From the NCBI GenBank assembly GCA_001724265.1, contig MEDY01000296.1, positions 1 through 38,502 on the forward strand: a stretch of 38,502 bases of DNA, given 5' to 3'. Origin of the DNA: Rhizaria sp. SCN 62-66. Its lineage: Eukaryota. Below the pieces are notes generated by a model, which had not been told where the DNA came from, did no database searches, and saw only the letters and a list, made by a program, of their open reading frames with translations. Every line of letters begins with the position of its first letter. The first letter of the stretch is position 1. A program made the translations under genes and the position numbers. Positions 14,001-35,633 of the stretch are shown here, in pieces.

Positions 14001-17000
14001 GCGGACGGGACCGCAACGGGGGGCTGACGCGCCGCGGCCGAGGCGGCGGCCGCGGCCGCGGCGGCCGGCACGGGCAGCGACATGGTCGCCGCGGCGTCGA
14101 GGTACGTCGGGTAGTAGCCGCTGCGCGTCAGCGCCGCGATGTGCTGCGTCAGCAGCATGTGCGTCTCGCGCGCCTCGCGGGCCGCGCGGCGCTCGCTGCT
14201 GCCGCCTGCAGACGCCGCAGATGTGGCCGCCGCAACAGCGGCGTTAGCGGCGGCCGCGGCGGCGTTGGTGTCGGCCGAGGCAGCGCCAGAGCCCGAGCTG
14301 GAGCCGGAGTTATTGGACGACGACGAAGACGACGACTTCTTCTTATCGGCAATGTTGCGGCGCGAAGTGACCAGAGTGCAGAACCGCGCGTGCGCCGCCG
14401 GGTCGGCGATCGCGGCGGCGTCGGCCACGGCCCACAGCGGCGGCAGCGAGTCCACCGAGGGCGTGAAGGCGCCCATGCGCTCCAGCGCCAGCCGGCGCGC
14501 CACGGTAGCGCAGATCTAAGGGTGAGCAAAGTTAACATAGTGTGATGATGTGAGATAATGCGTTAGAAAAAATTAAATTATGATTAAAAACGTGTTATTT
14601 GTGTTATTAAAGTCGTACCTCTCGTTGGAAAACGCGGAGGTAGACCTCGCGCTCCTTGCGCGTGCGGCCCAGCTTGCGCATCGCGGCCGCGGTGTAGCGG
14701 TGCACGCCCTCGGTCGCGGCAGTCGAGTGCGCAGCCAGCGCCAGTGCCGAGCGCTCGAACCGGCCCACGCAGCGCGCCAGCACGCGCGCGCGCACGGGGC
14801 CCTGCGCGGCGGCGGCCGCCGCGGCCGCGGTGGCGTCGGCCGCGAACACCGACGGCGGCGCCGCCACGCTGCCAGAGCCGCCGCCGCCCGCCACAGGGCT
14901 GCCGCCCGCGCCAGAGCCAGCGCTTAAGCCAGGGCCCGCGCCGGCGCCAACAGCGACGACGGGGGACGCCGTGGCCGAGCCCGTGGAGGAAGGCGCGAGC
15001 GCGGGCGAGGGCGTGGGCGTCAGAGCGGGCGGCAGCGGACTCGACAGCCCGAGCTTGGGCAGGCCTAGCAGCGTCGCGGCGGACACAAACGTCGCCGAGC
15101 GCAAGGCAGAGACGGAGCCTGCGGCGGCGCCGGCGTTGCCGAGGCGCGCGCTGCAGTGCGACTGCGTGCGCGACAGCGACCTTGACTGCGAGTGTGTTTG
15201 CGAGACAGACATCGAGAGCGAGAGCCCGCGCGAGCGGCGTGTGCCGAGCGCGGCCAGCCCGTCGCCCGTGGCCTTGGCCTCGTCGTCCAAGTCGGCGACG
15301 GTGTGGCCTTGAGTGCCGCCGCCGCCGCTGCCGTTGCTGCCCTGTTCGCCCTCGCTGTCGCTCCCGGCGCCGTTGAACTCGCTGATGCTGAAGGGCAGCG
15401 CGCGACTCGTGCTGACGCCGTCGCTGTCGCCTTCGCAGTCGCTGCCATCGGGGTCCCGGTCGCTGCCGGCGTCGGCCTCGGCCTCGGTGGCCGCCGCGTC
15501 CGCCGCCGTGGCCGCACTCGCCAGCGCGCTGTCCGCGCCCTCGTGGAACACCAGCGCGCCCGCGACCTCCCACAGCCTGCTCACGGTCATCAGGTCCACG
15601 AGCGCGGACGCGAAGCCCACGGTGGTGGGCACGGCGCCGATGCCGCCGCCGCCGCGCGCGCCCGCCGCCGCCGCGGCCACGGTCATGGCCGTCGCGCGCG
15701 GATCCGCCGCCGCGGTCATCGCTGCCGCCGCCGCTGCCGCGGAGTCGTCGACGGGGTAGAAGGCGCGCGACGGCTGCAGCAGCGGCTCCTCGGTCAGCCC
15801 CAGCGTGCCCGCGGCGGACTCGGCCGCGCGCTCGGCGGCGGCCACGGCGCTGGTGGCGGCCTGCGGCGCGCCGAAGCCCGCAGCAAAGGCGGCCATGGGG
15901 CCCAGCGGCGCGGGCGTCGACGGCGCGGCCATCGACCCGGCGCCGGAGCCGTTACTGCTGTACGCGCTTTGGTTGTAGCTGACGCTGTGGCTCGGGGTGT
16001 ACGCGTACGCAGGTGTACTGGCGATGGCGTGGCTCGTCGTCGGGGCGGCGAGGGACACGGAGATGCTACGAGAGCCCCGTGGCGTGGACGTGGGTGACCC
16101 CAGCGCGTAACCGCCGACGCTGTACGCACCACTGCCGCCGACGACGTCGCCGGCGGTCGAGCTCGAGCCAGCGCTCGCGTTGGAGACCGTGAGAGACGCG
16201 TTGTGCGTGGTATGCGCGGCGCGGCGGCGCACAAAGAGCGCGTGCGCGGGCGTGGTGGCGTGGAACGGCGGCTCATCCTTGCCGTCGTCGGCGAGTGCGA
16301 GGTCGACGTGTTTGAGCCCGTGCATCAGAGAGTGTGGCTGTACGCCCCCGCCGACGCCGGGGGAGCTCCCCGCAGTCGCCGGCGTCAGCAGTGCGCAGCC
16401 CGCCGAGTCGACGGCAACGCCCGTCGGCACGGGCGCGAAGAGCGCGCGCGCGGCGGCGGCGATCGCGCCCGCGGGGCCTGACAGCGACACGGCAGTCGCG
16501 GCGGACGCGGCGGCGGCGGACGCGGCGGCGAGCGCTTCCTCGGCGGCCGAGCCTTCGAGAGGCTCGGTGAACCACAGACGCAGCGTGTACACGAACTGGT
16601 CCGCGGGCACACGGCGCGCGCTCTGGCCGCTGCTGCCGCCTGTCCCGCCGCCGCTGCCGCTGAGCGAGAGGGAAGAGGGGCACAGCACGTCGCCGCTCGC
16701 AGCTGATGCGGAGAGAGACGAGGCGTAGGGCGACGGGGGCGGGTATGAGATGGACGATGGCAGCGAAGCCATGGAGCCGGAGCCCGTGCCGTAGGCAGGA
16801 ATGACGTGGTGGTCAGTGCTGCCCCCGTTGTTGTGGCCGCCGTCCTTCTCCTTCTCCTTGTCCTTGTCTTTGCCGGTGAGGGCCGAGGCGAGCGAGAGAA
16901 TGCCCGCGCCGACGTGGCGCCGGCGCAGCAGCTCCACGCCGCGCAGGGACGCGTACGACCACGCGCGGTCGCGCGAGAGCTGCCCGCGGAACAGCAGGCG

Positions 17001-18359
17001 GTCCGTCGTCAGGCCTGTGCACGACGAAAAGACAAAGCAAGCAGGAATGAGCAATGGTGAATATGAGGTCGTCAGTCAAGTAGTGAGTATTGGGGGGAAT
17101 ATTGGACAACCACAGAAATAAAACAAACTCAAAACACAACTTATGAGTTCAGGACTATCCGTACCGAGCGAGCCATTGGAGTTAGTGATGGTGGACTTGA
17201 TCTTCGCGCCGGGCCAGGCGAGGACGAGCTTCTCTGTGTCGCGCACAGCAGCCGCAGCCGCGGCCGCAGCCGCCGCGTCAGCCGCCGCCGCGCTGTCGTC
17301 GTCGCCGTTGGCAGCAGCCGCCGCAGCCGCAGCGGCCGCCGCAGAGGCCGAGGCCGCGGCTGCCCCAGCCCCGCCGCCGCCGCCGCTGTTGGCACCGCCG
17401 CTGACGGTGCCCGCGGCCGTAGCGCTGACGGGCGCGATGCCGAACGCGGCGCGGAGCCCGAATGACGTGTCGACGCGGGCCTCCGAGAGGCGGTGGAGCT
17501 GCGCCACGAAGCGCGAGAAGGTGGCGTATGTGATCGCGCCCGTGACCGGCCGCAGCGCGTGGCCGGCGCCGACGACGAGCTGCCTGCCCGCCGCGGCCCC
17601 GGTCTTGTCCTTGTCCTTGTCCTTGTCTTTGTCGCCAAAGGCCGAGAAGACGCGCGACAGCACGCCCGAAACGCCGCGCTGCCGGCGCGCGGCCTCCTCC
17701 TCCTCCTGCTTGGCCTTGGCCAGCAGGCAGCGGTCCGCGACCTGCGCGAGCAGCGCGAAGACGGCCGCGGCGTCCGCGCGCGACGCCAGCCCCAGCGCGT
17801 GCGCGTAGCGGTGCCACGCGCACGCCGCGATCGGCACGTCGGGCCCGCCGCTGGGGCCGTGCGCGGGGTGACTGTGGGCGGAGTGACCGTGGGGCACAGT
17901 CAAAGAAGACGAGGAAGCTGAGGGAGCTGAGGCGGCGGCTGGCTGGGCATCGGCGAGCCCAGTGGTGAGGATTTGGTGAGTTAATGAGGTATGCGCAAAC
18001 GCGAAGCTCTGCACAGAGCGGATCGCGGTGAAATACACGAATTCAGGGAAGCGCAGCAGCGTGCTGTTTGGCTCGTAGCGGCGCTTGTCAGCGGCGTAGT
18101 CGATGTAGCGCTGACGGAGCTCCTCGGGGGTCGCGTCCAGCAGCGCCAGGCATAGCTGGAACGGGAGCTCGTCGGTCGAGCCCGCAGGCACGACCCAGAA
18201 CTGCTGCTGTTGCAGGAGCTGTTGCTGTGTCTGCTGAGACTGCGACTAGGGAGGGTTCGCAGAGGAGGCTGAGGCCGGGGCGGCAGCGGCTGATGCGGAT
18301 GCGGCCGCTGTGGACCCCTGCAGGGGCGGCGCGGAGGTCGACAGCGACAGAGACGACAT
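11069..18359 (-). CDS. Large GRAM/PH-like domain protein with C-terminal membrane hairpins (GRAMD4/MCTP-PRT_C-like), about 2345 aa; contains an in-frame TAG at 18246-18248
   Basis: Exons 18359-17165, 17014-14619 and 14515-11069; introns 17164-17015 (GTACGG..CAG) and 14618-14516 (GTACGA..TAG); total 7038 nt, in frame, stop TGA. Splicing creates the GRAM-like EKLVLAWPGAKIKSTITNSNGSLGLTTDRLLFRG. C-terminal PFSIQALVSNVSMLRRLVDPV..QWHRPWFTLSTLVFLL and LLRWHTPTTSMKFCRILTVVFLVLWFVPFRVIF resemble reticulon-like ER hairpins. The start at ATG 18359 requires reading through TAG at codon 38. The family call is less certain than the gene structure. Confidence 0.7.
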
Positions 18360-19108
18360 CAAGGCGCGGATTGGTGGTGATAGTCACGTAAGTTGCGAGG
18401 GCTGGGACGAGCGCGGTGGCGTCGTGTCAGCAGCAACAAACGGAAGGTGGTGTGAAACGCTCCGGGCAAAAGGCGCGGAAGGCCGGGGTTTGGGAGTTAA
18501 ACGCGCGGATTACCCACGCGGGGCTGGGGAGAACAAAACGACGGGTGAAAGCACGAAGCTGTGCGAGGGTGAATGTCCTGAAGAGCTGTGGGGGGTGGGC
18601 GACAGCAGTGTGGGACCAGGGAGGCACTGTGAGAGTGATGTAGATAGTGCGGTGTGGAACCAATACAATTAAGATGGCAAAACGGAAATGGAAATATATA
18701 AAATTCGTGAAACTAAAACCAGTCCCAAACCAGCGCTGCTGGTGACGGACGGCAACGCGGGCTTTTGAGTGTGAAAGACCACTGACATCCGTCTCCTCGG
18801 CTTCGGCCCCTTATGTCGTCATCGATTTCTTAAAATGCCGTGGGTGACCTAAAACTTGCATAAATCAAAAGAAAAACAAGAAATTAACTATGTATTAAGA
18901 TCAAAAGCCTTTGAATAAATACTTTTACGCCACTGATCCACCTGTACCCCTGGCCAGAACCCACTTTCTCGGCCCGATGCGCGTTTTAGACCAGAAATCG
19001 CCGTTCCTCTACATCTCTCTGGTCTTCCACTCTCGCATCAGTACCTTTCTCGGACACGCAAACACGCGTTTTTATCACAGACGCGCCGCGCGCACCGCCG
19101 CGGGTCAC

Positions 19109-20428
19109 TTAGAGCTTGTAGCCGGAGTGAATGGCGACCATGCCCAGCGAGAGCGAGTCGAAGCCGACGTTGCGGAAGCCGGCGGCGCGCATGCGCATGG
19201 CGAGCTCCTCCTTGGGCGGGAACTGGCGGATCGACTCGGCCAAGTACTGGTAGCTCGCGGCGTCCTGCGCCACGATGTCGCCCAGCAGCGGCATCACCTT
19301 GAACGAGTACTCGTCGTAGAGCTTCTGCATCACCACGTTGTCCATGGAGCTGAACTCAAGGCACATGAAGCGGCCACCCTTCTTGAGCACGCGGTGAGCC
19401 TCCCGAAGCGCCTTGTCCATCTCGGTCACGTTGCGCAGGCCGAAAGCGATGGTGTACGAGTCGAAGTGGCCGTCGGGGAAGCGGAACAGGTTCGCCGCGT
19501 CGCCCTGCTGGAACGAGATCGCTGGGTCGGCCAGCCCGTTGGACAACACGCGCACAGTCGAGCCGAAGCTAGAGGTGCTAGGGCTTGCAGTCGCAGTCGC
19601 GCTGCTAGGGTCAGCGACGATCTGGGCCTCGGTGACGGGGGCGTCGGCGAAGGGGCAGGGCACGACGTTGTAGCCGAGCTTGGTCGCGCGGTCTGCGCCG
19701 ACGTTCAGCATGTCCTGTATCGTACAACGGTTCAGCGGAGCATAACAGTGCATAGAAAAGAATGTGTTGACAATGTAAGAGGATATCGGAGTGAGATATA
19801 ATTTTGATGAAACAAAATTAAAGAAGGGTATATAAAGTGGGAATACATATTTGACTATGGAACTATATCCAGCTATGACGAGATGTTGTGTCGCAAAGTG
19901 AGAAATATCTTCGATAAAAGATGAGCGTACCTGGTTGATGTCGCAGACGATGATCTCGGACACCGCAGCGCTGGCAGCGGGAGAGCTGCCGGGGTAGGGG
20001 AAGAAGGCGCGCAAAGCGGGCATGGCGCGGAGCTTCTCGAGAATGCGGAAGGAGATGTCTCCGGTACCGCCGGCGACGTCGAGGTGCTTGATGCCGGGGC
20101 GCGGAGCGAGCGAGTGCACCATCTGGTCCTTCCACACGCGGTGGATGCCCACGCTGAGCACGTCGTTCATCAGGTCGTAAGTGTTGGCCACGCGAGTGAA
20201 AACCTCGCCGACGAGCTTTGCCTTGTCCTTGGCCTTGACGGTCTGGAAGCCGAAGTGTGTCTCGGCCGCGTCGTCAATCGTCGAGTTGCCCGCGTTGGAG
20301 TTGGCCGCGGTCGCAAACAGAGAGCGCGAAGAGCGCAGGGGAGCCGCGGCAGAAAGCGCGGAGGTAGAAGAAAACATAAGCTTGCCAAGAACGTGCTTGG
20401 AAAGCAAGCCCTTGCGAGATGCGAGCAT
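19109..20428 (-). CDS. COQ5: Ubiquinone biosynthesis C-methyltransferase COQ5 (UbiE family), mitochondrial, about 367 aa
   Basis: Exons 20428-19931 and 19714-19109; intron 19930-19715 (GTACGC..CAG). Motifs THFGFQTV, YDLMNDVLSVGIHRVWKD, LDVAGGTGDI, YTIAFGLRNVT, LKKGGRFMCLEFS, YQYLAESIRQFP; ends HSGYKL-TAA. Basic Ser/Arg-rich N-terminus resembles a mitochondrial presequence. Confidence 0.96.
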   Translation of the reverse strand: MLASRKGLLSKHVLGKLMFSSTSALSAAAPLRSSRSLFATAANSNAGNSTIDDAAETHFGFQTVKAKDKAKLVGEVFTRVANTYDLMNDVLSVGIHRVWKDQMVHSLAPRPGIKHLDVAGGTGDISFRILEKLRAMPALRAFFPYPGSSPAASAAVSEIIVCDINQVRSSFIEDISHFATQHLVIAGYSSIVKYVFPLYIPFFNFVSSKLYLTPISSYIVNTFFSMHCYAPLNRCTIQDMLNVGADRATKLGYNVVPCPFADAPVTEAQIVADPSSATATASPSTSSFGSTVRVLSNGLADPAISFQQGDAANLFRFPDGHFDSYTIAFGLRNVTEMDKALREAHRVLKKGGRFMCLEFSSMDNVVMQKLYDEYSFKVMPLLGDIVAQDAASYQYLAESIRQFPPKEELAMRMRAAGFRNVGFDSLSLGMVAIHSGYKL

Positions 20429-20977
20429 GGCTGGTTGGGTTGCAAAGTGAAGAGGGGCAAAACAGGTGTTTGGTGAGGCTATGTTAGTAGAGTCAACAGG
20501 TAGCTTTACAAAGCGAGTGCAAGAACAAAATGCAAATTGTATCATAAACAAAAATTAATATTTTGTCTCTACTGTTACTCTTGTGTTAATTCTACGATCG
20601 CTCATCGCGTGGGTACGATCGCCAAGAACGTCCGAGATGCCGGCCAGACCACCCTCTCTGTGTACTGGGAGCTGGAGCGCTGGCTGTGGTATGTGACTCC
20701 CCAACAAAACACAACTTAATGAGCCAACATGATATCAGATATGAACATCATCGCGGCAGAATATAAATGAGAGCGCTTGTCATTTAAAAATTGGTGATTG
20801 AATTTCACACTTGCAAATAGATCTGTGTATGCCTGGGCCAAAGTCGGCGTTCCCTATCAGTGACCATATAACAATGCTAAGTAAACTTTGGGTTGATAAA
20901 AAACATGATGAACACATAATGGCACAAATAAAGCTTTAAATAACAGCAATAGAGTTGTACAGCTAATAATCTGGTGC

Positions 20978-21053
20978 TCATCGACCTCCATAATTGTGCT
21001 GTTGGTGCTGCTGCTGTTGCTGCTGGTACTGTTGCTGTTGCTGAGGAGGATAC

Positions 21054-21085
<32 letters not shown>

Positions 21086-23074
21086 GTGCTGAGGAGGGTA
21101 CTGCTGCTGGTAGGGCTGCTGGTGGTGCTGCGGCAACAGGTGAGGCGGCGGCGGCGGCGGGAACTGAAGCGTCTGTTGCTGGTGTTGCATGGGAGCGTGC
21201 TGCGGCTGCTGATGATAATGCGGCTGTTGCTGCATAGGAGGACGTTGTTGCAGCTGCGCCTGCACAGCCTCCGCCCGCATCTCCTCGTCCGCGTCCGCAA
21301 ACGCAGACAGAGTGTTGACGTTCTTGGGCCGGCCCGCCATAACTGCCTGCGGCGGCATCTGCCCGTGCATCTGCTGTCCGTGCTGTCCGTGAGGTGCTTG
21401 CGGCCCCTGGGGGCCCTGGTGACCGTGGGCAAACTGGCCCTGGCCCTGGCCCTGGCCCTGCTGCTGCTGATACGGCCCCTGCCCATGCTGCTGCTGCTGC
21501 TGCTGCTGCAGCATGTGCTGTTGGTAGAACTGCGTCTGCGGCGCGCCGTACTGTGTGTGCGCGGGGATCGACCCAGGGTTGTAGGCCAGCCCCGCCACGC
21601 TCTCGGTGAAGGCGTTGCGTGGGACCTCCCCGGCGTCCAGCTGGCAGTAGCCGGTCCGCACGTCGAAGCCCTCCTTGGGGACGCGCACGCCGCGGCCCCA
21701 GCTCGGCCGTAGTACCACCGGCAGCGGCACGCCGCCCGGGCCGGCCCCCGGCAGCACCACGGTCGCGCCCGCGCCCGCGGCGCCGCCCGCGCCCGTGGCC
21801 GCGGGGTTGCTTGCCGCCGCCAGCGCCTCGAACGCGGCCACGGCGGCGCGGCGCGAGCGGTAGAAGACGAAGGCCATGCCAGGGCGCGGCACGCGGAGCT
21901 GGAACACGGGCCCGAAGCGCTGCAGCAGCGGCGCCAGATCCGCCTCTGTGATGGGCGCCTGCGGCGGCAGCGTGTTGAGGAAAAGCGAGGTCGACGCCAC
22001 GTTCACGCGGCCAGGCGCCGCGGCCGACTGGTCCTCGGTGACAACGTAGCCGTGCGTCTCGCCGGAGCCGCCCAGCCCGCCGGGGCCGCAGGGCGCGCCA
22101 GACGGCCCGCCCGCCGCGCCCGTCTGCGCGCTCGACAGCGCCTGCGAGGGCGGCGGCGGCAGCGGGCCCAGGTGCGCGTCCGCGGTGGCCGCGGGGGCGT
22201 TGGGGTCCGTGGGGACGAAGGGGCGCTTGGCGGGGCGCTCGCCACCGCTGCCGCTAACACTCTCGTCATCAGCTGCATTGGCTGCTGCGTCGGCGCCATT
22301 AGCGTCGCCAGCGCCGTCCGCGCCGGCCTTCTTGCCGCTGTTGCCGGCAGCGGCGTCAGCGGCATCGGCGGCGGCCACGGCGGCCGCGGCGGCGTCGGCG
22401 CCGAGGATGTCGACGAGCGACGTGGGGACAATAGTAGAGAGGCGGGCGAGCAGACCGTCCGCGGCGCGCGCGGCGGCCGACGCGGCCTCGGCCTGGACGC
22501 GCTTCTGGTGTGCCTCGAGCTGCCGCTGCTGTGCGGCAAGCCGGAGCTGCGCAGCCTCGCCGTCCTCGTCGTCGCTGAACTGCGCCTCCGCCTCGGCTTC
22601 AGCGGCCGCCGCGGCCGCGGCGGCGGCAGCGGGGTCGGCGACGGAGCCGCCGCCGGCGAGCTGCGCCTGGACATCGGTGCGCGCGTCTTCAATAACCGTC
22701 TTGATCTCGTCCAGGACCTTGACGTGGAAGAAGCGCTGCGAGGTCCAGTACTCGACGCAGCGCCACACCTTGTCGAAGTCGTCCAGGTTCACGTACGCGA
22801 GCGTCTTGAACGAGCCCGCGATGGTGGGCTCGAAGCGTTGCGCGAATGGGTGCTGGCGCGCGGCGCGCAGCAGCGAGTCGAGGAAGAAAACGGCCGCTAG
22901 GCGCATCTCGGGCGTGGTGCACTTACGGAAGTGGGAGGAGCAGAGGTGCACGACGTGCTTGTAGAACTTGGCGTACTTCAGGGCCACTTTAGTCGCCTGC
23001 TCGATCGGGTCGCGCGAGCTCGACTTGAGCTGGCTCAACGCCTTTTTCAGCTCGGCCTCGCCCTCGAAACTCAT
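20978..23074 (-). CDS. CID + RRM protein, SCAF4/SCAF8 - Nrd1/Seb1-like (about 698 aa)
   Basis: Single exon, ATG 23074 to TGA 20978. N-terminal CID (ATKVALKYAKFYKHVVHLCSSHFRKC..RLAAVFFLDSLLRAAR), RRM (VASTSLFLNTLP..FGPV..MAFVFY..SWGRG..FDVRTGY) and Q/H/P-rich C-terminal tail. Confidence 0.85.
20995..21513 (-). repeat. Coding Gln/His/Pro-rich low-complexity (CAG-rich) tail of the CID-RRM protein
   Basis: Dense (CTG)n on the + strand encoding QQQQQQQHGQGPYQQQQ...QQHQQHQQQQQYPPQQQQQ. Confidence 0.85.
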
Positions 23075-23683
23075 CGGCGCTGGAGTGGAAGCGGCACTGG
23101 CGCGGGACTGATTTGTAGGTGGTGTCAGGCAGCGGGAAGGAAGAACGCGGTGAGTCTTGTCTATCACGAAAGTAGGTGGGAGGCAGTGAGAGTGAGCTGG
23201 AATTCAAAAGATAAATAGCGAATAGAAATAATACTCACGTCTATAATACATATCGCGAGATTTTTTGCTAACAACGAACGCAAGAAGCCGATTACAAAGG
23301 TCTTTTTGCCCTGATCCGAGCTATCCACCATTCCTTTTTTTACGAACCTCGGCCGACTGCCGACTGCCACGGACCTGTCGCGAACGAGGAAGCCTGAGAG
23401 TCGCCTTTCGCATTTCATCGATTCGTGGGTCTCAGCGCTATCAACGCGTGTGCTACTAATATGGTGTGAAACTACAAGTGCGCTTCTTATTGGGCCCGTT
23501 TGCCTTTTTGTTAACGACGGACACACCATCTTATTACTCCTCACGTTTTGACCACACTTCGACTCCACTCCGCCCCAGCTTCCTTTTCGCCTTCGCACAG
23601 CACTCTCACAGTTTCCCAGCCATCGACACGCAAGAAAGCTTCTTGTCTGCGTTCCAGCGCTTGCGCCTTGCCCCCCGCACGTT
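23075..23683. promoter_or_regulatory. Divergent intergenic/promoter region between the CID-RRM gene and NOL10
   Basis: 609-bp lower-GC spacer between ATG 23074 (-) and ATG 23684 (+). Orientation-based inference only. Confidence 0.45.
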
Positions 23684-26500
23684 ATGTCCGCCTCTTCCGC
23701 TAACGAGGACAGCGTGGCCGGCCCGCTGAAGCTGACGACGTTCAATGGCGTCAAGGTCTACAACTGCACTGCCAGCAAGTCTGCCCCTGAGTGGGCCTCG
23801 GAGTTCAAGAACCGCGAGGGCGCGCTGCGCTACAACGACGACTTCCGGCGCCGTATCGAGGTGATCCAGGCGTTCGAGTGCCCGCACTCGGTGACGCGCG
23901 TCAAGGTGTCCCCCGATGGCCGCTTCGTGGCCATCGCCGGGCTCTACAAGCCGCGCGTACGCATGTACGAGTGCGCGCAGCTCTCGCAGAAGTTCGAGCG
24001 CTTCTGCGACAACGACGTCACGCAGTTCCAGTTCCTTTCTGACGACGCGTCCAAGGTGCTGTATCTGCGCACGGACCGCGTGCTTGAGTTCCACGCCCAA
24101 GGCGGGCTCCACGCTAAGATCCGCGTCCCTCGCCCCGGCCGCGACCTCTTCTACCACCGCCCCACGTGCGACGCCTACGTCGCCGGGTCCTCTTCCGAGG
24201 TCTACCGCATTAACCTTGAGCAGGGTTCATTTGTGGCGCCGCTGCAGACGGGGCTGGACTCTGTCAACGTCATCGGCTCCAACCCCGTGCACCCGATCCT
24301 GGCCTTCGGCGGCGGCGACGCCGGCCGCGTCGAGTGCTGGGACCCGCGCGACCGGACGCGCGCCGCCGTGCTCGACCTTTCGGCCTCGGTCCTCGCCTCG
24401 CACCCGGCCATCGCGCGCGCGTTCCGCGACCCCGCGGCGAACAAGCTCGCCGTGCACTCGGTCCGCTTCGCCGACAACGGTCTCACCATGGGCGTCGGCA
24501 CATCGACGGGCCACGTCATGCTGTACGACATCCGCGCCGGCGCGCCGTTGATGGTCAAGGACCACCGCTACGGGCTGCCCGTACACTCGCTCAAGTTTCT
24601 CGAGTCTTCGGGCAAGTTCATGTCGTCCGACACCAAGGTGCTCAAGTTCTGGGACACGCAGACGGGCGCGGCGCACACGACAATCCAGCCGCCCGCGGAC
24701 GTCAACGACGTCACCGTCGTCCCGGGCTCCGGGCTCGTGTTTGCCGCCTGCTCCACGCCGCGCGTGCAGGTCTTCTACGTCCCCTCGCTCGGTCCCGTGC
24801 CCAATTGGTGCGCGCATCTCGAGGGCCTCACTGAGGAGCTGGAGGAGTCGACCGAGACGGCCGTGTACGACGACTACAAGTTCGTCACGCGCGAGCAGCT
24901 CGACGAGTGGGGGCTGTCGCATCTCATCGGGACCAACCTGCTCCGCGCCGTTATGCACGGCTTCTTCATGGACGTGCGACTCTATACGCAGATCCAGACC
25001 GTCGCGCTGGGCAGCGCCGAGTCCGCCATCGCAAGCTCCATCGCGCAGGGCAACCGCGCGGCCGCGGCTGCGGCCGCCGCCGGGGACGCCACGACAGGGT
25101 CCGCGTACGACAAGTACATCCGCGAGCAGGCGGCCAAGAAGCTCGACGACGCGACACGCAACCGCATCTCGACTGCGGCCGCGCTGCCCGACGTCAACCG
25201 CGACTTCGCCGAGGCGCTCATGGCCCGCGCCAGCGCCGAGGCCTCGGCCGGCGACTCGATCGGCCAGAAGAAGGCGGCGCGCGCGGCCCGCGACCGGCAG
25301 GCCGGCGCGTCGCTGCTGGCCGACGAGCGCTTCGCGGAGCTGTTCGAGGACGAGGACTTCCACATCAACAAGGACAGCTCCGAGTACCAGCGGCTTAACA
25401 TGACCGGCCTCTCCGGCGGCGTGCGCGAAGCCGCGGCCGCGCTGAGCTCCTCCTCCGGCTCCGCGGCGCCCGGCAAGAAGACTATGTCGCTGGGCGCGAA
25501 CGCGGTGGTGATGCGCATGGGCGACAACGTCGGCGAGGACGGCGTGGACCTCAAGCTGCTGGCCAAGATGGAGGCCGACCTCAACGCCGCAGAAGCCGCG
25601 CGCAAGAAGGCCAAGACCGCGGCCGCCGCCGCTACGGGCGGCAAGGGCGACGCCGACGTCAAGCTCGGCGGCAAGAACAGCAAGAAGGCTACTGTCGATG
25701 ATGGTGACGACGACAGCGAGGACAGCGACGACGACGACGGCGCCCGCGGCGGGCTCAGCGTCTCTGCCCGCGCGCGCGCGGCCGCCCAGGCTCAGCTGGC
25801 CGCTGCGCAGGCGCAGGCCGAGGCCGCCACCGCCGCCGCCGCGCGCGGGCAGCCTAAGAGCAAGCTGCAGCTGCTGAAGGAGGAAGAGGCTGCCATCGGC
25901 TCCGTCCGCGGCAAGCGCCCCGCCGCGGTGGACGCTGCCGCGGCTGCAGCCGCGGCGGCCCGACTCCGCGCAGCGCAGGCGCCCTCGCACTTCGACCTCA
26001 TGGCCGAGTCGGCCGCGTCCGCGGGCGCCGAGACCCGGGGCGCGCTGCTGGCGGTGCGCGCTGGCACCGGCATGGGCGACGTGCTGCAGCGTGTGCGCGC
26101 GGAGAAGGGCTTCGACGTCGCCCTCTCTGGCAGTGGCGGCGGTGCGGCGGTGCGCATGCAGTCGTTCGCGCACCTGCCGATGGCGCAGCGCCTGGCCGCC
26201 GAGGAGGCCGAGCGGCGGCGCGTGGCGATGCTGCGCGAGGCCGACAAGGCGCGCGCCGAGCGCGACGAGGCCGCGGCCAAGAAGAAGGAGGCCGAGGACG
26301 CGCACGGCAAGCGCCGCGGGCTCAAGGAGATCTTCCACCCATCCGAGATGGGCATGGGCGGCGGCAGCCGCGAGCGCCAGCGCGGCTTCGGCGGCAGCAG
26401 TGGTGGCCGCGGCGGCAGCAGGGGTGGCAGTCGCGGAGGAAGCTTTGGCGGCGGCCGCGGCGGGGCGCGTGGGCGCGGCGGAGGTCGCGGGCGCTTCTGA
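23684..26500 (+). CDS. NOL10: Nucleolar protein 10 / Enp2 (WD40 SSU processome factor), 938 aa
   Basis: Single-exon ORF. NGVKVYNCTASKSAPEW, RRRIEVIQAFE, SPDGRF..GLYKPRVRMYECAQLSQKFER, FYVPSLGPVPNWCAHLEGLTEELEE, VYDDYKFVTR, LLRAVMHGFFMD and NUC153-like DERFAELFEDEDFHINKDSSEY; RGG-rich tail; stop TGA. Confidence 0.95.
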   Translation: MSASSANEDSVAGPLKLTTFNGVKVYNCTASKSAPEWASEFKNREGALRYNDDFRRRIEVIQAFECPHSVTRVKVSPDGRFVAIAGLYKPRVRMYECAQLSQKFERFCDNDVTQFQFLSDDASKVLYLRTDRVLEFHAQGGLHAKIRVPRPGRDLFYHRPTCDAYVAGSSSEVYRINLEQGSFVAPLQTGLDSVNVIGSNPVHPILAFGGGDAGRVECWDPRDRTRAAVLDLSASVLASHPAIARAFRDPAANKLAVHSVRFADNGLTMGVGTSTGHVMLYDIRAGAPLMVKDHRYGLPVHSLKFLESSGKFMSSDTKVLKFWDTQTGAAHTTIQPPADVNDVTVVPGSGLVFAACSTPRVQVFYVPSLGPVPNWCAHLEGLTEELEESTETAVYDDYKFVTREQLDEWGLSHLIGTNLLRAVMHGFFMDVRLYTQIQTVALGSAESAIASSIAQGNRAAAAAAAAGDATTGSAYDKYIREQAAKKLDDATRNRISTAAALPDVNRDFAEALMARASAEASAGDSIGQKKAARAARDRQAGASLLADERFAELFEDEDFHINKDSSEYQRLNMTGLSGGVREAAAALSSSSGSAAPGKKTMSLGANAVVMRMGDNVGEDGVDLKLLAKMEADLNAAEAARKKAKTAAAAATGGKGDADVKLGGKNSKKATVDDGDDDSEDSDDDDGARGGLSVSARARAAAQAQLAAAQAQAEAATAAAARGQPKSKLQLLKEEEAAIGSVRGKRPAAVDAAAAAAAAARLRAAQAPSHFDLMAESAASAGAETRGALLAVRAGTGMGDVLQRVRAEKGFDVALSGSGGGAAVRMQSFAHLPMAQRLAAEEAERRRVAMLREADKARAERDEAAAKKKEAEDAHGKRRGLKEIFHPSEMGMGGGSRERQRGFGGSSGGRGGSRGGSRGGSFGGGRGGARGRGGGRGRF

Positions 26501-27066
26501 AGTGAGGTATTTTCTCCTCCACTTGTGTGCATGCAGTCACGTCTGTGTGCCCTCTCTGGTCCGTAAGAGTACCGTGGGAAATCTATTGGCCATAATGGGT
26601 CCTAAAACCTCTGTATACAAAGTCATTCTTTTTTTGTTCTCGTTGAATCTGGTAACCTGGAACAGATGACTGATAGTTAGTTCGTTGATTCATATTGCCC
26701 TGTGGATCGAACCAGATATTTTATTAATAAACAGCTAAACTTACAAACAATCCATGGCATATTGCATCGTGTACCACGCGGCCACGGCGCGTACCACCGG
26801 TTACTTGTGATTTTTTCGGAACCGGGCTCTGAACTCCAAGAGCTACTTGGTCGACAGAATAAAACGATGTGCGACGCGGTGCAGAATCCGTCAGTGTGTA
26901 TGCCATACTGGTCTTGATATTAAACACATGTTTTCATATAAAGTTCTGAAATTAGAGCGATGGGAAACTTCATCAACACTTCCATAAACTCATCAACCCG
27001 CAAACTCTCTCGCATGGCCCTCATCCTCTTCTCTTGGGTTGTCGTTCCACTGCAACAAGCACAGAG

Positions 27067-28742
27067 ATGCTCCGTAAGCTATCTCTTGCGCGCCGCGCCG
27101 GATCCCTTCTCCGCACACCTGCCGCGGTTTCGTCGCTGCTGCCGTTGTCGCGCATGCAGAGCGCCGTGGCCGCGGGCTCGGCAACAGTGCCCGCGGACGT
27201 GGAAGTGTGGATCAACGCCGCGCATCCGGCCGTCGGTCTGCGCGACCGCGTCGACGCGCGCTCGCTTGTGCGCCTGTCGCAGACGCTTAACACCAGCACA
27301 CAGTCTGAGTGGATGTACAACGAGATCCACGGCGCGCACCCGGCGGCACACTGGCTGTTTTGCACCGAGGGTGGCGCCACCAAGGACCTCAACGCCGACG
27401 GCTACTTCAACACCTTCCGCCCGCCGAAGCCCTTCTCGGTGTGCATGTGGGGCGGCGGCACGATCCACTTCCACGACGCCCTGCGGGTGGACGCGCACAT
27501 CCACTCGGTCGTGCGCGTGTCGAAGCCGCAGTTCAAGGCGGGCCGCACGGGCAACATGGTGCTTGTGTCCCGCACCAACGACATCGTCGCCAAACACAAT
27601 AATAAGCACCTCGTGCGCGACGTCGTCAACCTCATCTACCGCGACGAGAACGCCGCCAAGCCCGGCCCCGAGGCGCCGCTGTCGCCCGAGCAGGCCGCGG
27701 TGCGCGCGCGCCCGCTGGTGCAGGGCCAGGACTACGACTTCGAACGGAGCGTGCCGTTCGAGACAGACGCGCGCACGTTGTTCCGCTTCTCCGCGCTCAC
27801 GTGGAACACGCACCGCATCCACTACGACTCCGAGTACGCCAAGAGCGAGGGCCACGACGGCGTCCTTGTTCATGGCCCGCTCCAGGCCACCGTGCTCCTC
27901 GACTTCGCGAACGAGGTACGTTTAGTTTGATGCTCAAACTACTTCGCCCACCTTCCTCTCACATGCAAGCGATGTCATGAAAGTGCTTTGCTTGCAACTA
28001 AACGTGTGTGTGTTTTTTACTAAGATTGAACTGTTGTAAATAACCTCATTTTTTAAATCTTCTTTTCTTGTATTTCAACTTGCACTCGATACTTGCTTCT
28101 TAGATCTCCAAGGCGATCGCGCCGCCCGTGGAGCCGCTGCTGGAGCGCTACTACACGCGCCTGATGTACCGCCAGCTGGTACTGGAGCAGAACGAGGCCG
28201 TGCGCGCGCGCCGCAACGCGCGCAGCGTGCATGGCCCGTCCCCGGCGCAGGCGCCCGCGCACTCGCACTCTCACGGGGGCGAGCCTTGCGGCCACAACCA
28301 CGGCGGCGAGAACGGCGAGGACGAGGAGGAAATTCCTGACGTGCCGATCCCGCCTGCGGACCGCGTGCCGCTGGACTACAGCGACATCCCGCTCATGCAG
28401 GTCGAGCCGTGGCACCTGCGCTACCAGAAGCTGCGCTCCTTCAGCTACCGGGCGCTCAAGCCGCTGGTGGCGGGGACGCGCGTGCGCGTGCTGGCTCAGG
28501 TCGTCGAGGACCAGGGCCGCGCCGACGCCGAGGCCATCGCGCGCGCCGACGCCGAGTGGGCCGCGCACCCGACCCGCCGCACGCCGCCGCAGCTCGAGGA
28601 GGAGCACTACTGGAAACGCGTCCTGCCCGCGCGCGTCAAGGTGTGGGTGCAGGACGCGGAGAAGAGCGACGTGCGCTACATGGAGGGCGAGATGACCTTT
28701 ACCAAGCTCAACAAGGAGTACGTCGGCTCCAAGGTCATCTGA
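27067..28742 (+). CDS. HTD2 / mesaconyl-CoA-hydratase-like double hot-dog (MaoC-type) dehydratase, probably mitochondrial, about 495 aa
   Basis: Exons 27067-27915 and 28104-28742; intron 27916-28103 (GTACGT..TAG), phase 0. Motifs MWGGGTIHF, KAGRTGNMVLV, LFRFSALTWNTHRIHYDSEYAKSEGHDGVLVHGPL, FSYRALKPL. Presequence-like start MLRKLSLARRAG. Stop TGA. Confidence 0.85.
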
Positions 28743-29014
28743 GTGGCATTGTGAATCAGGGATCGCGTCTGTGACGGTGCGCGCCAGTGACTGTGAGCTT
28801 AATGGCTATGTATTGTCGCTCAGTGAGAGGCAACAAGGATTTTAATTATATAAACGAATAAAATAAAATAATGTAAAAACTCCACACTAACTCCAATTAT
28901 CAACTTACTGAATCGAAAGATACAATTGGGACAAAGTCAGACGCACAATCAAATCAAATCTCAATGTCGCGTTGTACGAACATGTGGTTGTTTACACGAC
29001 TACAAATCGGCAGT

Positions 29015-32000
29015 TTACAGCGCAGCTGGGATCGCGCTGGTACGCGAGACTGCGCCCGCAGGCAGCGGTGTGACAGGCGCCGCCATCCCGCCTGCCTCGA
29101 CCGTCGCGCCGCCACTCCCCACATTCGCGCTCGCATTGCTGGAGTGACTGTGGTCGCGGCTACTAGGGGGAGCAAAGCCAGGCGCCACGGCAGCGGCAGC
29201 GGCAGCGGCAGCAGCTGCGTCGGCCTCGGCCGCCGCCACGCGCACGACAAAGTCCCTCAGCGCCTCCTCGCGGCCGCCGCCCAGGAAGGCGCAGAACCAC
29301 GCCCCGCGCACCAGCCCTGACAGGCGCGCGCTGCAAAACGACGCGCCTGCTGCGTCCGCTCCAGCGCCAGTGCCCGCGACTGCAGTGCCCGTGCCTGCGC
29401 TCGCGCCAACGACGGCCGCGGTGCTGCCGCTGTGCGCGCCTTGCGGCGTCGGTGTCGGACCGCCGCCGCTGCCATCGAGCTCAAGCGCGTCCGCGCCGTG
29501 CTCCGCCGCGTCCAGCTCTGCCTCCGTGGCCATGCCGAGCGGGTCGTAGACGTCGAAGCCGAGAATCTTGCGCGCGCTGTCGCCCGCCGTGCGCAGCGCG
29601 CGCGCCGCGGCCCACGCCGCCAGCGCCACGTCGCCCGCCACTCGCCGCGACGGCGCCGCCACCGTCAGCGTGTCCTGCGCGCGCCCGCGACTGGCGTTGC
29701 CGGGACTACCGCCACTGTTCCCAGTGCTTCGGTACTCAGAAGCAGCATCTTTGTCGTTGCTATTGTTGTTGTTATTGTTGTTGCCATTGCCTTCGTCGTC
29801 TTCGTCGTCGTCATCGTCATCATCAGATGCCTTGCTGCCGGGCTTGGCACCGCTCTTGACGCCACTGCCGTTGCCGTTAAGGTCACTCGTGTTGCTGCCG
29901 CTGCCGCTGCCGCTGTCGCTGTGCGCGTCCCCGCCCGCGCGCGCCGCGGCCTGCGCGGCGGAACGCCACCGCCTACCCGCGCGCTGCGCCTCTACGTCCT
30001 GCGCTGCGGCTCTCGCGCTGCCGCCGCTGCCGCTGCTAGCGTCCCCGTTGCCGCCGCCGCTGCTGCTGCTGGGCAGCGCGCGGTAGGACGACCGCAGGTG
30101 CGCCTCGCGCGAGCGCAGCACCGCGATGCGCGCCGTGCGCTGAGCGAAGGCCAGCTGGTGCGTCGCGGCGTCCGTCAGCGCCTGTGCCGACTCCAGCAGC
30201 AGCGCAGGCTCGCCCAGCGCGCTGCGCGTCGTCGACGAAGACTGCAGCAGCGGCCGCGAGCGTGCACGGCTCAGCGACGCGTACCTAAGGTAAGTTTCAC
30301 AAAAACAAGGAACAACAAAACGTAAACATCAAATTGGAATAAACGGAATGAAATACAGTGTTAAAACACTACTTAAACAAAAATTATAATCTTTTAAACG
30401 ACAACCCACTATCGTAAAACTTCTAGTCGTGATTTACGTACAGGAATACATCGGCGAGAATGAGGCGCGCAAGGCGCACATTGACGAGTGCGCCGACCCA
30501 ACGCTGCGCCTCGAGACTCGACGTCAGCAGCGCCGCCAGCGAGGGGTACAGGCACTGACGCGAGGCGAGCGCGCGGGCCTGTTCGCGGGCGCGCGCGTCC
30601 TCGGCTGACTCGGCCAGGTCTGGCTCGCACTCGGACACAGGCGTCGAGGCTGCCGCCTGTGAGGACACATGCGCGGCAGAGTCCAACTCAGCGGAAGCCG
30701 CCGCCGCCGCCAAAGAGGCGTAATTGTCCGTTGCAATCGGAGCAGAGACAGGAGCTGACGCAGGAAGCGGCTGCGCCGGCGCGTGCAGACGCAAGTGTGG
30801 CCAGAGCGACGCCAGGGACAGCGGCGGCGGCGGCGTCAGCGACTGCGCGGCCGCCGCAGCGCTGCCGCTGTCTCCGCTGTTGTGGCTGTTGCGGCTGTCA
30901 CTGTGGGGCACTGCGACAACGGTCGACAGCCGGGAGAGTCCCGCGTAGAGCGGGTGCGCGCCCTAGTGGCGCAGTTCGTGCCGTGCCACGGGCCCGCTGT
31001 CGTCGTAGCAGCCCCTTAGACCGGGGGAGCTGGCGCCACTTAGACGGCGGCCAACGGCCCCAACGCTCTCCTGGGTCAGAGAGCCGGGACTACTGTCACT
31101 GCAGTCGTTGTCGCTGCCGCCAGCATTGCTCATGTCGCCGCTACCGCTGCAATGCGCGGCGCCGCCGAGGCCGCCGGCGCAGGGCGCGCCGTGGCATCCG
31201 ATGACCCAGGAGGGGTCGACAAGCAGCCTGCGTAGCCGCAGCCACGCGAAGGCGGCGCGCGGCAGCGGGCGCTGCCAGGCCAGAGGGTGCCGTGCCGAAG
31301 CCACGCCGCCCGCGCGGGGCGTCAGCGGCGGCGCGAACGCGTCGTGCCGCAGCACCCTCCCGGGGTCCGGCGGCGGTGCTGCAGACGACGGCGGGGGCTT
31401 TGTGTTGCCCGCGACAGCGCTCTTCACTGCAGCTGATGCTGTCGCGGTGGAAGAGTGCATCGGCGGCAGGGGGATTAGTAAGTTCGCGTACGATACGCTG
31501 AGAACGGCCGCAGCGCCGCCGCCAGCGCTAGTGGCAGCAGCGGCGGCGCCAGCAGCGGCGTCGGCTGCGGTCATGGGCACGCTGGCGGCAGCAGATGCGC
31601 CGGCAACGGCAGCGACTGGCGGCGCGGCCGGCGTGAGCACGACTGGAGTGATCAGGTAGTCTGCGATTAAACCTGCGAATACGCGCGGAAAATGAAATGG
31701 AAGGAAAAATCTCATCAGAAAAATGGTTAGATAAACATATGAACGGTGTGATCACTCGTAAATAAAACTGCCTCAATAGAATAATATGCTCGTGCAATTG
31801 CAAGCGCTCACTGAACGCACCATTGAGAACCCACGCCTTGGCGCCGTTGACCATAAGCATGAGCGCGTCGGTGTCGCCATCAGCCTCGCCGTCGCCGTCA
31901 CTCTCCGCCTCTGCGTCGACCTCCTCGCCCGGACTGGCGCCTGTGTCGCCCGCACTCGCAACAGCACCCGTCGCGCTCGCGGTCGCAATCGCGTTGACGC

Positions 32001-34239
32001 TTGCACCGCTGCTGTGCCTGGTCTTGTTCACATTAGCGCCGTCCGCTGCGCCGTGGTTTGCCGCGCCGCTCGCCGCGCCACTTGCTGCGTGTGCCTCGCT
32101 GTCTGCCGCGCTCTCGGCGGCGTACGCGGCCGAGGTCGCCGCCGTGGCGCTGCTGGCGGCGGCGGCGGCGCGGTCCGCGTGGCTCTCGGAGAACACGCCC
32201 TCGGTCGCGGCAGCAATCGCGGCCGCAGCCTCGGTCGCGAACGCGCCCAGCCCCGTCTGCGCCGACGGCGACGCGGGCGATGATGGCGACGCAGCGGCCA
32301 ACGCAGAAGAAGCTGACGTTGACGCAGAAGCAGATGCTGACTGCACAGATGCTCGTGCCGAGGCTCGCGCCGAAGGTTGCGCCGAGACTGCAGACGCCGG
32401 CGCTGACGCTGGCGCCGGCGTCGGTGTGGCCGGCGCGGGCGTGAGCGTCGACGCAGGTACGGCCACGGCAGCCGCATGCACCAGGCGAACAAATGGCAAT
32501 CCTTTCTGGCTCTGGCTCTGGCTAAGAGCGTCCACGCCGGCTCCCGCCGTCGCGGCCGCGGTGGCCGCCGCGCCCGCGCTCGCGCCTGCGGCGGACATAA
32601 GGTGTGAGTACACGTGACCCTCGGCGACCGACACTGCGAGCAGGGCTTCGCCGCGCAGCAGCGGGCCCAGCACGCAGCGCCGGCAGCGCGGCGCCTGGCG
32701 CGCGGCGGCCGCGGACGCACCGCACGACCACGGGGAGCGCGGGGCGGCGCGAGAGCCCAAGTCAGAGTGACAGCTACCGGAGCCAGAGCCAGGGACGGGG
32801 GTCTGACTCAGGTGGTACGGGCAGAGATGGGTCGGGGCCCCGCAGTAACCGTGGCCGTGGCCGTGGCCGTGGTGGGCGCGGCCAGGATCGCCAGCGCTAT
32901 CGCGAGCCGTATTCGAGCCCGTCGCAGCGCCAGACATCAGGCGACGGCGACGAGTGCTCCGAACAACACTCGCATCAGCATCAGTGTCACTATTGCCATC
33001 GTCGTCATAGTCGTCAAGATCGGCGTCGCGCACGCTCCCACTCGCCGCCGCACCGCCGCCGTCACTGCCCCGGCTCTGGCTCCGCTCAGCCTCCGCCTCC
33101 GCCTCTGCCTCCGCCTCGGCGGCCTCGTCCTCCTCAAGCAGCTGCCCCAGCGCGAGCGCGGGCCCCAGCAGCGCCCAGGCCAGCCCAGGCGGCAGCGCCG
33201 CGGCCACGGCGTCGACGAGCGCGCCCACGTGGAACGGGTCTAGGCTGCGCGCCGCGACGCCACCCGGCAGCACAAACCCGCGCCCGCGTCCGGCCTTCTC
33301 GCTGACGCCGGGCGGGGGCGGGGGACATAGTGGGCAGACGGGGGCCGCGAAGGCCCACTCGGGGAACGCGCGAGGCCTGCCTCCGCTGGCGACCGCAGCC
33401 AGCAGCCCGTGGCGGCCACAGAGCGCCGTCACCGCACGCGTCAGCGGCGCGCCCGCGGCCGGCAGCGCGGCGGTGGCGCCCCAGGCCCCCGGTCTAGCCA
33501 CCGCCGCCATCGCTGCCGCCGCCACCGCTGGTGCTGCGCCGCCGCTGCTGTCATTCACTGCGTTTTCATTCACGATGTCGTCCCTGTTGTCGTTCGCGCT
33601 CGCGTTTCCACCGCGCGCTCTAGCGCCCGCGCCCGCGCTGCTCGCATTGCCGACGTGCACGCCGCTGTAGTTGTTGCCCAGCGCCAGCAGCGCAGCGGCC
33701 TCACGCGCGAGCAGTCCGCGCGCGGCGGCGGCCAGCGCGGCGTGGCTCGGGCCGCGGAACGGCGACGGCCCGCGCGGGAACGGGTCCGCGTGCGCGTCGT
33801 CCACAAACGAAGGAACGCCCGGCGCCAGGCCCAGCGTGGGGGGCGCGCGGCGCGCGTTAGGGAGCGAACCCGCACCGCCTGGGGTCGGGGCCGTGCTGCT
33901 GTGGTGGCCGGCGGCGGCGGCGGTGTCGAGGTCGTAGACGGCGCCGCGCAGCCACGAGGGCTCGGCGAATGGCGAGGAAGACAGTGCGCAATGCGACGCC
34001 AGCGGGGCCGGCAGCGCGGGGCCGGCCGCCAGCGAGCGCGGGGGCGGCTGTGAGGCGCACAGGGCGGGGGCGTGCGCGACAGGCTAGCACGGCTGGGGGA
34101 CCGTTAGACGGGCGGGCGGGGGCGGCGGAACAGGGTACGACTGCAGCATGGCGGTGTCGTAGGTCGCTGCGGACGCATGCAAGCACGGATCACGCGCAGG
34201 CAAAAGCGCGGATGCGTCATGGGGCGTGACGGAGCTCAT
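29015..34239 (-). CDS. Highly divergent, insertion-expanded acyl-CoA dehydrogenase-like protein (about 1639 aa); contains in-frame TAGs at 34084-34086 and 30963-30965
   Basis: Exons 34239-31821, 31672-30442 and 30284-29015; introns 31820-31673 (GTGCGT..CAG) and 30441-30285 (GTACGT..TAG); 4920 nt, in frame if both TAGs are sense; stop TAA. ACAD-like blocks in the correct order: PFAEPSWLRG, SPFRGPSHAALAAAARGLLARE, LPGGVAARSLDPFHVGALVD, VLGPLLRGEALLAVSVAEG, MVNGAKAWVLNGLIADYLITPV, WLRLRRLLVDPSWVIG, QARALASRQCLYPSLAALLTSSLEAQRW, GDSARKILG, LVRGAWFCAFLGGGREEALRDFVVR. An alternative start is ATG 34149. Confidence 0.72.
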
Positions 34240-34748
34240 GGGGCAGCGCCAAGAAGAGCGGGGAGCGAGAGGGGGGATATCGAGAACTGACCACTCTTCT
34301 GAAAAGCGCCAATATAACGAGTGTCACAAGCTACTCGGTAGAAATAATAATGGAAGATATGCTATGATAAGTTAAAGTATTGTTTTGAGCTGCTCTAATT
34401 CGTATTGTCGATCAGGCCATGTCGCACGGATGTTGAACACAAAGACAGTCATCAGCCTTTGAAATTTGCCGACTCGTTCGGCGCCTCATCGACGAATCGA
34501 TATATAGTATGTACAGCATGATCCTGAGCGGTGAACAATGCAGCGCTAGTTGATCGGAATAGCTCTATTTTACAACTGTTCTTTCACTTAATTATACACC
34601 AGAAATCTGTCGTTAAGCTTGTCAAATGCTCTCTCAAAATGTTCGCCCTCCCTTACGACATTCGACCGAACTTCTCTCGACCGTTTACCCATGACAGAAA
34701 CCACAAAGCTCTTCTTCAGCCGCACCTGCACAGGAGAAGTTTGCACAC
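34240..34748. promoter_or_regulatory. Divergent intergenic/promoter region between the ACAD-like gene and UBC9
   Basis: About 510-bp AT-rich spacer between ATG 34239 (-) and ATG 34749 (+). Orientation-based inference only. Confidence 0.4.
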
Positions 34749-35633
34749 ATGTCCACCATTGCCCGTGACCGTCTTATGGCCGAGCGCAAGGTACGCTTTT
34801 CTGCATAATGCGACCCCGCAGAAACCTCCACTCTCGGCCCCTATCTCAACTGCTCTTGCTCGTTTGCATTTCTCTGTCGCTCGGTCCCCACGCTCTCTAT
34901 CACCGCCCTCTCGCCGATTTCTATTGCTTATCTCTCACATGCATCCACCTTTTTGCTTTGCTTTTACTCGCTTCCTGTTTTTCGCGCTTCTGCGCAGCGC
35001 TGGCGCCAGGACCACCCTCCCGGCTTTTACGCTCGCCCCGAGTCCGCCGCCGACGGGTAAGTCTCTGATCCTCTTAACCCGCCACAAATCACTCTCTAAC
35101 CATGTCAATATGCAATTATACTTTGTTTTACATCTCATCGCATTATTTTATTCTCCTCAAACTCGCATGTCTCTCCACGCGATCGCCTCACCTCACCCGT
35201 ACTCTTCTCTCGTCTTCTCTCACTCCTTAACATGCAAACACGTCCCGCGCCCCGCAGCTCGCTGAACCTGTTCACGTGGCGGTGCGGCATCCCGGGCAAG
35301 CCGAACACGGACTGGGAGGGCGGCGTGTTTCCCATGCGCATGGAGTTCCCCCCCGAGTACCCCGCCAAGCCGCCCAAGTGCGTGTTTGAGCCCGTGCTGT
35401 TCCACCCCAACGTCTACCCCTCGGGCACCGTCTGCCTGTCGATCCTGGTCGAGGAGAAGGGCTGGCGGCCCTCGATCACGATTAAGGACATCCTGCAGGG
35501 TGTGCAGGACCTGCTCGACGAGCCCAACGAGGAGGACCCGGCGCAGTCGGAGCCCTTCAAGCTCTACCGCAGCAACCTGCCAGAGTACCGCCGCCGCGTC
35601 AAGCAGTTCGCCGCCACCTGCCCGCCGCCATAA
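34749..35633 (+). CDS. UBC9: SUMO-conjugating E2 enzyme UBC9, 158 aa
   Basis: Exons 34749-34790, 34998-35056 and 35258-35633; introns 34791-34997 (GTACGC..CAG) and 35057-35257 (GTAAGT..CAG). Product [56 protein letters not shown]...[16 protein letters not shown]...; stop TAA. Confidence 0.97.

Follow-up and report, generated by a model that had tools for sequence, protein, structure and literature searches.

Contig MEDY01000296.1, whose full length of 38,502 nucleotides is referred to here as the window, is a eukaryotic sequence carrying around a dozen genes on both strands, among them members of the Pfam families UCH, HlyIII/PAQR, COQ5, CID+RRM, NOL10, UBC, CSTF2, NUDIX and MaoC-like dehydratase. 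GC content varies between 43% and 77% per kb, with the coding sequence having a GC content at third codon positions (GC3) of around 0.9 and the promoters and introns being richer in AT. Two long genes, designated gene 1 and gene 2, contain between them three in-frame TAG triplets: TAG1 in gene 1, and TAG2 and TAG3 in gene 2 (Table 1). The plus strand reads CTA at all three sites, hence the genes that carry these TAG codons are on the minus strand. They were central to a preliminary description of the window, which proposed a nuclear genetic code with UAG alone read as sense.

Reconstruction of the two TAG-containing genes

Once spliced, gene 1 has a length divisible by three, amounting to 2346 codons, with a single internal stop, the TAG at codon 38, before its terminal TGA. 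Gene 2 is likewise divisible by three at 1643 codons, of which 52 and 1046 are TAG, and closes with TAA; it contains no frameshift, TGA or internal TAA, and both of its introns are in phase. Over this region the minus-strand frame is continuous, whilst the plus-strand frames are broken. The description of three in-frame TAGs in two long, otherwise intact spliced genes was thus borne out by reconstruction, as it was by identical contigs from other sequencing runs.

The runs compared, comprising three of DNA (X2, X3 and X4) and one of polyA-RNA (X5), were represented by assembled contigs, not raw reads. Contigs of X2 and X3 cover positions 17987-20259 and 30534-34400, and one of X4 covers 17774-18511, with no differences from the window in any of these intervals; hence the TAG bases are real. 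X4 comes from a different study (a 2025 contig), whereas X2 and X3 are from the study of X1, the possible source run, or match it in record size, and may stem from a single campaign with it; independent confirmation is thus provided by X4 alone and for TAG1 alone. RNA contigs map onto both genes. One of these (X5 record 32, 33841-34106) has TAG3 unchanged and ends 20 nt past it on the upstream side, and among the contigs listed for X5 none extends across TAG1 or TAG2. No listed contig joint in the compared runs coincides with any intron. The local GC content around the TAGs is 0.63-0.83, and the codons following TAG1, TAG2 and TAG3 are TCG, GGC and CCT respectively, with no motif in common. 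The TAGs are genuine DNA, in frame and in exonic-type sequence.

Starts, reading frames and splice signals around the TAG codons

Under the standard code, the gene models themselves might be wrong: TAG1 and TAG3 would then lie in upstream open reading frames (uORFs) or 5' untranslated regions, and TAG2 in an atypical intron or at a gene end, with translation starting at a non-AUG codon in gene 1 and at Met244 in gene 2. We consider this unlikely. The splice signals bear on it in both directions, as all three TAGs are preceded by pyrimidine-rich sequence resembling the local acceptors, which have the form YAG and in three cases read TAG, but a consensus donor is absent within 600 nt of TAG1. 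Eight introns were identified from the sequence, 103-216 nt in length and with a GC content of 0.29-0.42 in the five measured; their donors are GTACG in six cases, and GTAAG and GTGAG in one each. Scanning for donors of the form GTRHG revealed none in the 600 nt upstream of TAG1 and, for TAG2 and TAG3, only distant or promoter-located ones. This consensus-donor filter was used in place of a count of unfiltered frame-preserving GT/GC..AG pairs, which occur in hundreds by chance (229 for TAG1) and are uninformative. Judged in this way, introns of the type predicted in this organism do not remove the TAGs. On inference we also rejected spliced-leader trans-splicing at CCCTAG, given that genes of the two strands are intermingled, that cis-introns are present and that no AUG follows for 440 codons.

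In the case of gene 1, the ATG at 18359 is the first after a leader free of ATG in every frame, the next ATG upstream being 429 nt away, and a leader of this kind favours it as the start. All eight start codons examined are preceded by ATG-free leaders, of 53-429 nt; in six control genes these span 53-247 nt, and the start contexts are similarly C/G-rich. Coding statistics are strong (GC3 of 0.88 and a mean codon log-odds of 0.51 over 2346 codons), and near the C terminus there is a DUF639/GRAMD4-like match (11072-12571; Pfam E 1.7e-7, under the curated cut-off). Downstream of TAG1, 360 codons are open, a length reached in 2 of 2000 shuffles, and directly after the TAG the codon score is +13.4, positive in the TAG frame only, which again argues against a misplaced start.

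When residues 1-140 of gene 1 were compared with 1.84 billion representatives using HMMER, five matches were found, none of them over TAG1; two were dropped as bacterial repeat proteins by inspection, and three (P0002, P0003 and P0004) were kept. P0003 matches over 219 aa at 53% identity (E 2e-61), beginning 63 residues after TAG1, whilst P0004 matches over 136 aa at 38% identity, beginning 35 residues after TAG1. The called P0004 protein starts at the equivalent of gene 1 codon 73, as a start downstream of TAG1 would predict; however, gene 1 has an in-frame Met at codon 1 and the next at codon 480, with no in-frame ATG from TAG1 to the latter. Since conservation begins at around codon 73 and the next Met lies at 480, an AUG start must be upstream of TAG1. 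If the code is standard, no AUG allows gene 1 to be translated without loss of conserved protein; the standard code therefore requires a non-AUG start right after an abutting in-frame uORF. TAG1 is the strongest of the three sites.

The third relative, P0002, is derived from the European Nucleotide Archive (contig of 38598 nt) and has a called open reading frame (ORF) starting at GTG just past the TAG, implying that TAG1 is also present in a second strain or assembly. It is one DK unit shorter than gene 1 in a GDKDKDKDKDK tract (around 17500-17560), an in-frame difference in repeat length between strains or assemblies. Other searches around the site gave little: a homologue search of exon 1 against longer proteins had no match, one with residues 1-140 had two, neither over TAG1, and the cluster members of the gene 1 relatives include no form with a longer N terminus. 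TAG1 itself heads the run TAG-TCG-CAG-TCT-CAG in a Gln-rich tract and, being in such a Gln/Ser repeat, looks like a CAG turned TAG.

The evidence in gene 2 differs between its two sites. TAG2 is preceded by 235 open codons (39 of 2000 shuffles) and followed by 173 up to the donor (99 of 2000), from where the frame continues through a phase-matched intron into the 422 open codons of exon 3 (1 of 2000). Were TAG2 in an intron or at a gene end, these 595 open and phase-consistent codons would be non-coding. TAG3 is the weakest of the three sites. The codon score rises to +14.0 right after it, positive in the TAG frame only, and several out-of-frame ATGs precede Met244, both of which count against a start at Met244; on the other hand, the termination of the RNA contig 20 nt upstream of TAG3 would be in keeping with a mis-modelled 5' end. 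Within exon 3, one X5 contig is three bases short at 29379-29381 (1 + 2 bases), an in-frame difference in a low-complexity tract.

Gene ends, codon counts and the possible decoding of UAG as sense

The eight reconstructed coding sequences (CDSs) comprise 7481 sense-position codons, among which there are three TAGs (around 0.04% of codons), no TGA and no TAA, in agreement with the earlier observation that no reconstructed CDS has an in-frame TAA or TGA. The tally of 11 gene ends was also reproduced, with eight TGA, three TAA and no TAG; eight of the ends come from full CDS models (five TGA and three TAA), those of the UCH, CSTF2 and NUDIX genes being taken from ORF ends only. TAA had been regarded as a true stop in COQ5 and UBC9, and this holds: COQ5 ends in ...HSGYKL and UBC9 comes to 158 aa.

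A tentative reading of these data, to which we would give slightly less than an even chance, is that UAG serves as a sense codon of rare use, probably for Gln, with UGA and UAA ending genes. It is favoured because of the start logic of gene 1, the phase-consistent frame following TAG2 and the lack of TAG among the 11 gene ends; for glutamine as the candidate residue, the sole hint is the repeat at TAG1. UAG would thereby be an inefficient terminator in this organism, with UGA and UAA terminating, and ribosomes would begin at whichever AUG comes first in an mRNA and pass through the TAG, giving readthrough products of 2345 residues from gene 1 and 1642 from gene 2. The UAG might be translated by a tRNA with a CUA anticodon or a near-cognate one, in the presence of an eRF1 that recognises UAG poorly. 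ARAGORN and Rfam scans detected no tRNA genes in the window, nor does the window contain an eRF1 gene. The rarity of TAG, its position early in ORFs and the weakly constrained sequence around it suggest that such a reassignment would be young or inefficient. The UAG-only sense code proposed in the preliminary description is thus partly supported, in that the TAGs are real and in frame, by the start logic of gene 1 and by the lack of TAG ends; three sites are too little evidence to prove a code change.

A number of observations weigh against sense decoding, several of them favouring instead an explanation by errors in the gene models. Two of the three TAGs fall within the first 52 codons from the first ATG (P of around 0.002-0.009 under random placement), which suits uORFs or mis-set starts, or else a costly and inefficiently decoded codon tolerated only early. 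The stretches from the first ATG to the TAG are not significant by themselves, being open in 1335 of 2000 shuffles for TAG1 and, for the 51 codons before TAG3, in 954 of 2000, with a codon score of -7.6 in the latter; between TAG3 and Met244 the frame stays open in 200 of 2000. ORF length alone is no evidence of a gene here, because the GC3 of around 0.9 also produces long antisense 'shadow' ORFs. Two of these, of 766 aa at 11069-13369 (plus strand) and 769 aa at 24227-26536 (minus strand), sit opposite gene 1 exon 3 and NOL10 respectively, such ORFs being interrupted mostly by TGA and TAG. A scan for stop codons with coding signal on either side was set aside, since it failed to tell genuine frames from such antisense shadows.

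Other points against it concern conservation and abundance. None of the three TAGs is at a conserved position, and no relative covers any of the sites. The six genes with clear Pfam matches, amounting to around 3500 of the 7481 codons, contain no TAG; gene 1 is outside this set, its DUF639 match being sub-threshold. Gln is encoded by 248 CAG and 28 CAA codons, set against the three TAGs. Moreover, the lack of TAG among the gene ends is modest as evidence: on the general assumption that TAG ends 20-30% of genes, 0 of 11 has a P of around 0.02-0.07.

The same weighing bears on the possibility that, under the standard code, the TAGs are true premature stops, with gene 2 decaying or dispensable and gene 1 carrying a 5' nonsense allele, an explanation to which we assign a low probability. 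Given the codon usage of these genes (with inputs including 248 CAG, 221 TCG, 254 GAG and 120 TAC), 69-73% of single-base nonsense mutations would produce TAG, hence the absence of in-frame TAA and TGA carries little weight, and three out of three stops being TAG has a P of 0.34-0.39. TAG1 resembles a simple CAG-to-TAG transition in a repeat. The other two sites are both in gene 2, which is weakly coding in comparison with gene 1 (log-odds of 0.17 against 0.51 per codon; GC3 of 0.79 against 0.88), has no Pfam family and yielded no homologue when the part of exon 2 around TAG2 was searched, the self match also being absent. However, decay fits poorly with a gene 2 free of frameshifts, TGA and TAA, with both introns in phase and with RNA contigs mapping to it. 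Apart from its TAG, gene 1 remains intact across 2345 codons; it shows strong codon bias and conservation in relatives, and the TAG recurs in X4 and is implied in the variant assembly, all of which are unexpected of a nonsense allele. Premature stops would also leave the absence of TAG from the 11 gene ends unexplained.

Recoding at specific sites under the standard code, whether through leaky UAGs subject to programmed readthrough or through editing of the mRNA to a sense codon, appears very improbable. In filamentous ascomycetes, UAG is known to be converted to UGG by A-to-I editing, a process that prefers UAG, the triplet found at all the in-frame stops here; furthermore, the host genes otherwise look functional. 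Against this, the bases following the TAGs (T, G and C) share no motif, a lack of TAG at the 11 gene ends is not predicted, and the X5 contig over TAG3 is unedited, although this is weak, as the sequence is a contig bridging only 20 nt from a library that may contain DNA. Nor does anything point to an ascomycete: the nearest Atlas clusters to the gene 1 C terminus are diatom hypothetical proteins (score 0.87), a weak lead towards a stramenopile affinity for the organism, whilst the Atlas placement of NOL10 is uninformative on taxonomy.

To our knowledge, codes in which UAG alone is reassigned are limited to a small number of lineages (Iotanema, one sainouroid rhizarian, and certain ciliates among the phyllopharyngeans and oligohymenophoreans), and UAG is abundant in all of them. 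Panek et al. (2017, PMC5304391) describe UAG as encoding Gln in Iotanema spirale and Leu in the sainouroid rhizarian exLh, with 384 in-frame UAGs in 71 genes of exLh, many at hyperconserved Leu positions, and gene ends consisting of 56 UAA and 15 UGA. As in the account given there of these two organisms, the in-frame stops in the window are all UAG and the gene ends UAA or UGA only. Unlike exLh as so described, the window has only three TAGs in 7481 codons, none of them at a conserved position, is GC-rich and has UGA as its commonest stop. In phyllopharyngean ciliates, both UAG=Leu and UAG=Gln are reported, with UAG widespread and UAA the preferred stop (McGowan et al., 2024, PMC11687900). As portrayed in that report, these share with the reading of UAG as sense the uncoupling of UAG from UAA, and a suppressor tRNA with a CUA anticodon would be the expected mechanism; they differ from the window, which is a multi-gene contig of 43-77% GC per kb where the introns are spliceosomal with GTACG donors and most stops are TGA. 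The multi-gene contig, the GTACG introns and the TGA stops make a ciliate origin unlikely. Going by published outlines, Condylostoma, the karyorelicts and Blastocrithidia are like the window in tolerating stops within ORFs and in their position-dependent use, but there all three stops, or UAR and UGA, are involved and still terminate, whereas here it is UAG only, at none of the 11 ends.

A literature search at the level of listings and abstracts found no UAG reassignment reported for a GC-rich eukaryote from wastewater. The more specific proposal, that this is a GC-rich, intron-bearing non-ciliate, possibly a stramenopile, in which UAG has been uncoupled from UAA, probably as Gln, at an early or inefficient stage of stop-codon capture, is one we regard as possible and hold with somewhat greater reserve. 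Reassignment of UAG only breaks the usual coupling of UAA and UAG. If true, the few early UAGs in low-constraint sequence of a GC-rich lineage would show how a stop-to-sense change begins, as a natural intermediate in the capture of a stop codon, with UAG surviving only near 5' ends and in weakly constrained sequence. Standard-code gene calling on eukaryotic metagenome bins of this kind would in that event truncate proteins, an example being P0002, called from the GTG past TAG1. If the TAGs are instead nonsense alleles or the product of mis-modelled 5' ends, the finding is an ordinary one.

Other features of the window

Table 1. Positions of the TAG codons, the exons of genes 1 and 2, gene ends and further features in the window.
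Feature	Position	Strand	Details
TAG1	18246..18248	-	codon 38 of gene 1
TAG2	30963..30965	-	codon 1046 of gene 2, mid exon 2
TAG3	34084..34086	-	codon 52 of gene 2
Gene 1 leader	18360..18787	-	ATG-free in every frame
Gene 1 exon 1	17165..18359	-	ATG at 18359, context cgcgccttgATGtcg; no further in-frame Met in exon
Gene 1 exon 2	14619..17014	-	preceding intron 17164-17015, GTACGG...CACAG
Gene 1 exon 3	11069..14515	-	ends TGA; preceding intron 14618-14516, GTACGA...CCTTAG
Gene 2 exon 1	31812..34239	-	ATG at 34239, context cgctgccccATGagc; in-frame Met codons 1, 31, 244
Gene 2 exon 2	30442..31672	-	preceding intron 31811-31673, GTGAGC...TTCGCAG, phase 1
Gene 2 exon 3	29015..30284	-	ends TAA; preceding intron 30441-30285, GTACGT...CCTTAG, phase 2
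COQ5 terminator	19109..19111	-	TAA, after ...HSGYKL
UBC9 terminator	35631..35633	+	TAA; CDS 158 aa, 3 exons
NOL10 terminator	26498..26500	+	TGA
HlyIII end	7318		TGA
Gene 1 end	11069		TGA
CID/RRM end	20978		TGA
MaoC-like end	28740-28742		TGA
UCH end	6837-6839		TGA, ORF-based
CSTF2 end	36346		TGA, ORF-based
NUDIX end	214		TGA, ORF-based (uncertain)
Further intron	27916-28103
Further intron	19930-19715
X4 divergent contig type	24429-24550, 27594-27612, 28676-28700

The stretch is present in metagenomes from bioreactors, wastewater and activated sludge. Beside a contig identical to the window, X4 includes another contig type that is densely substituted, with 19 substitutions within 122 nt of NOL10, which suggests the presence of a related strain or species in the same sample. 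A NOL10-anchored search of metagenome contigs with 10-kb flanks recovered three loci of 30-40% identity on short contigs, and no syntenic relative.

The 5' splice site is unusually uniform, with GTACG at six of the eight introns, and might aid in the taxonomic placement of the organism. Two pairs of genes are arranged head to head, gene 2 with UBC9 (34240-34748) and the CID-RRM gene with NOL10 (23075-23683), each sharing a short and AT-richer intergenic region that looks like a bidirectional promoter.

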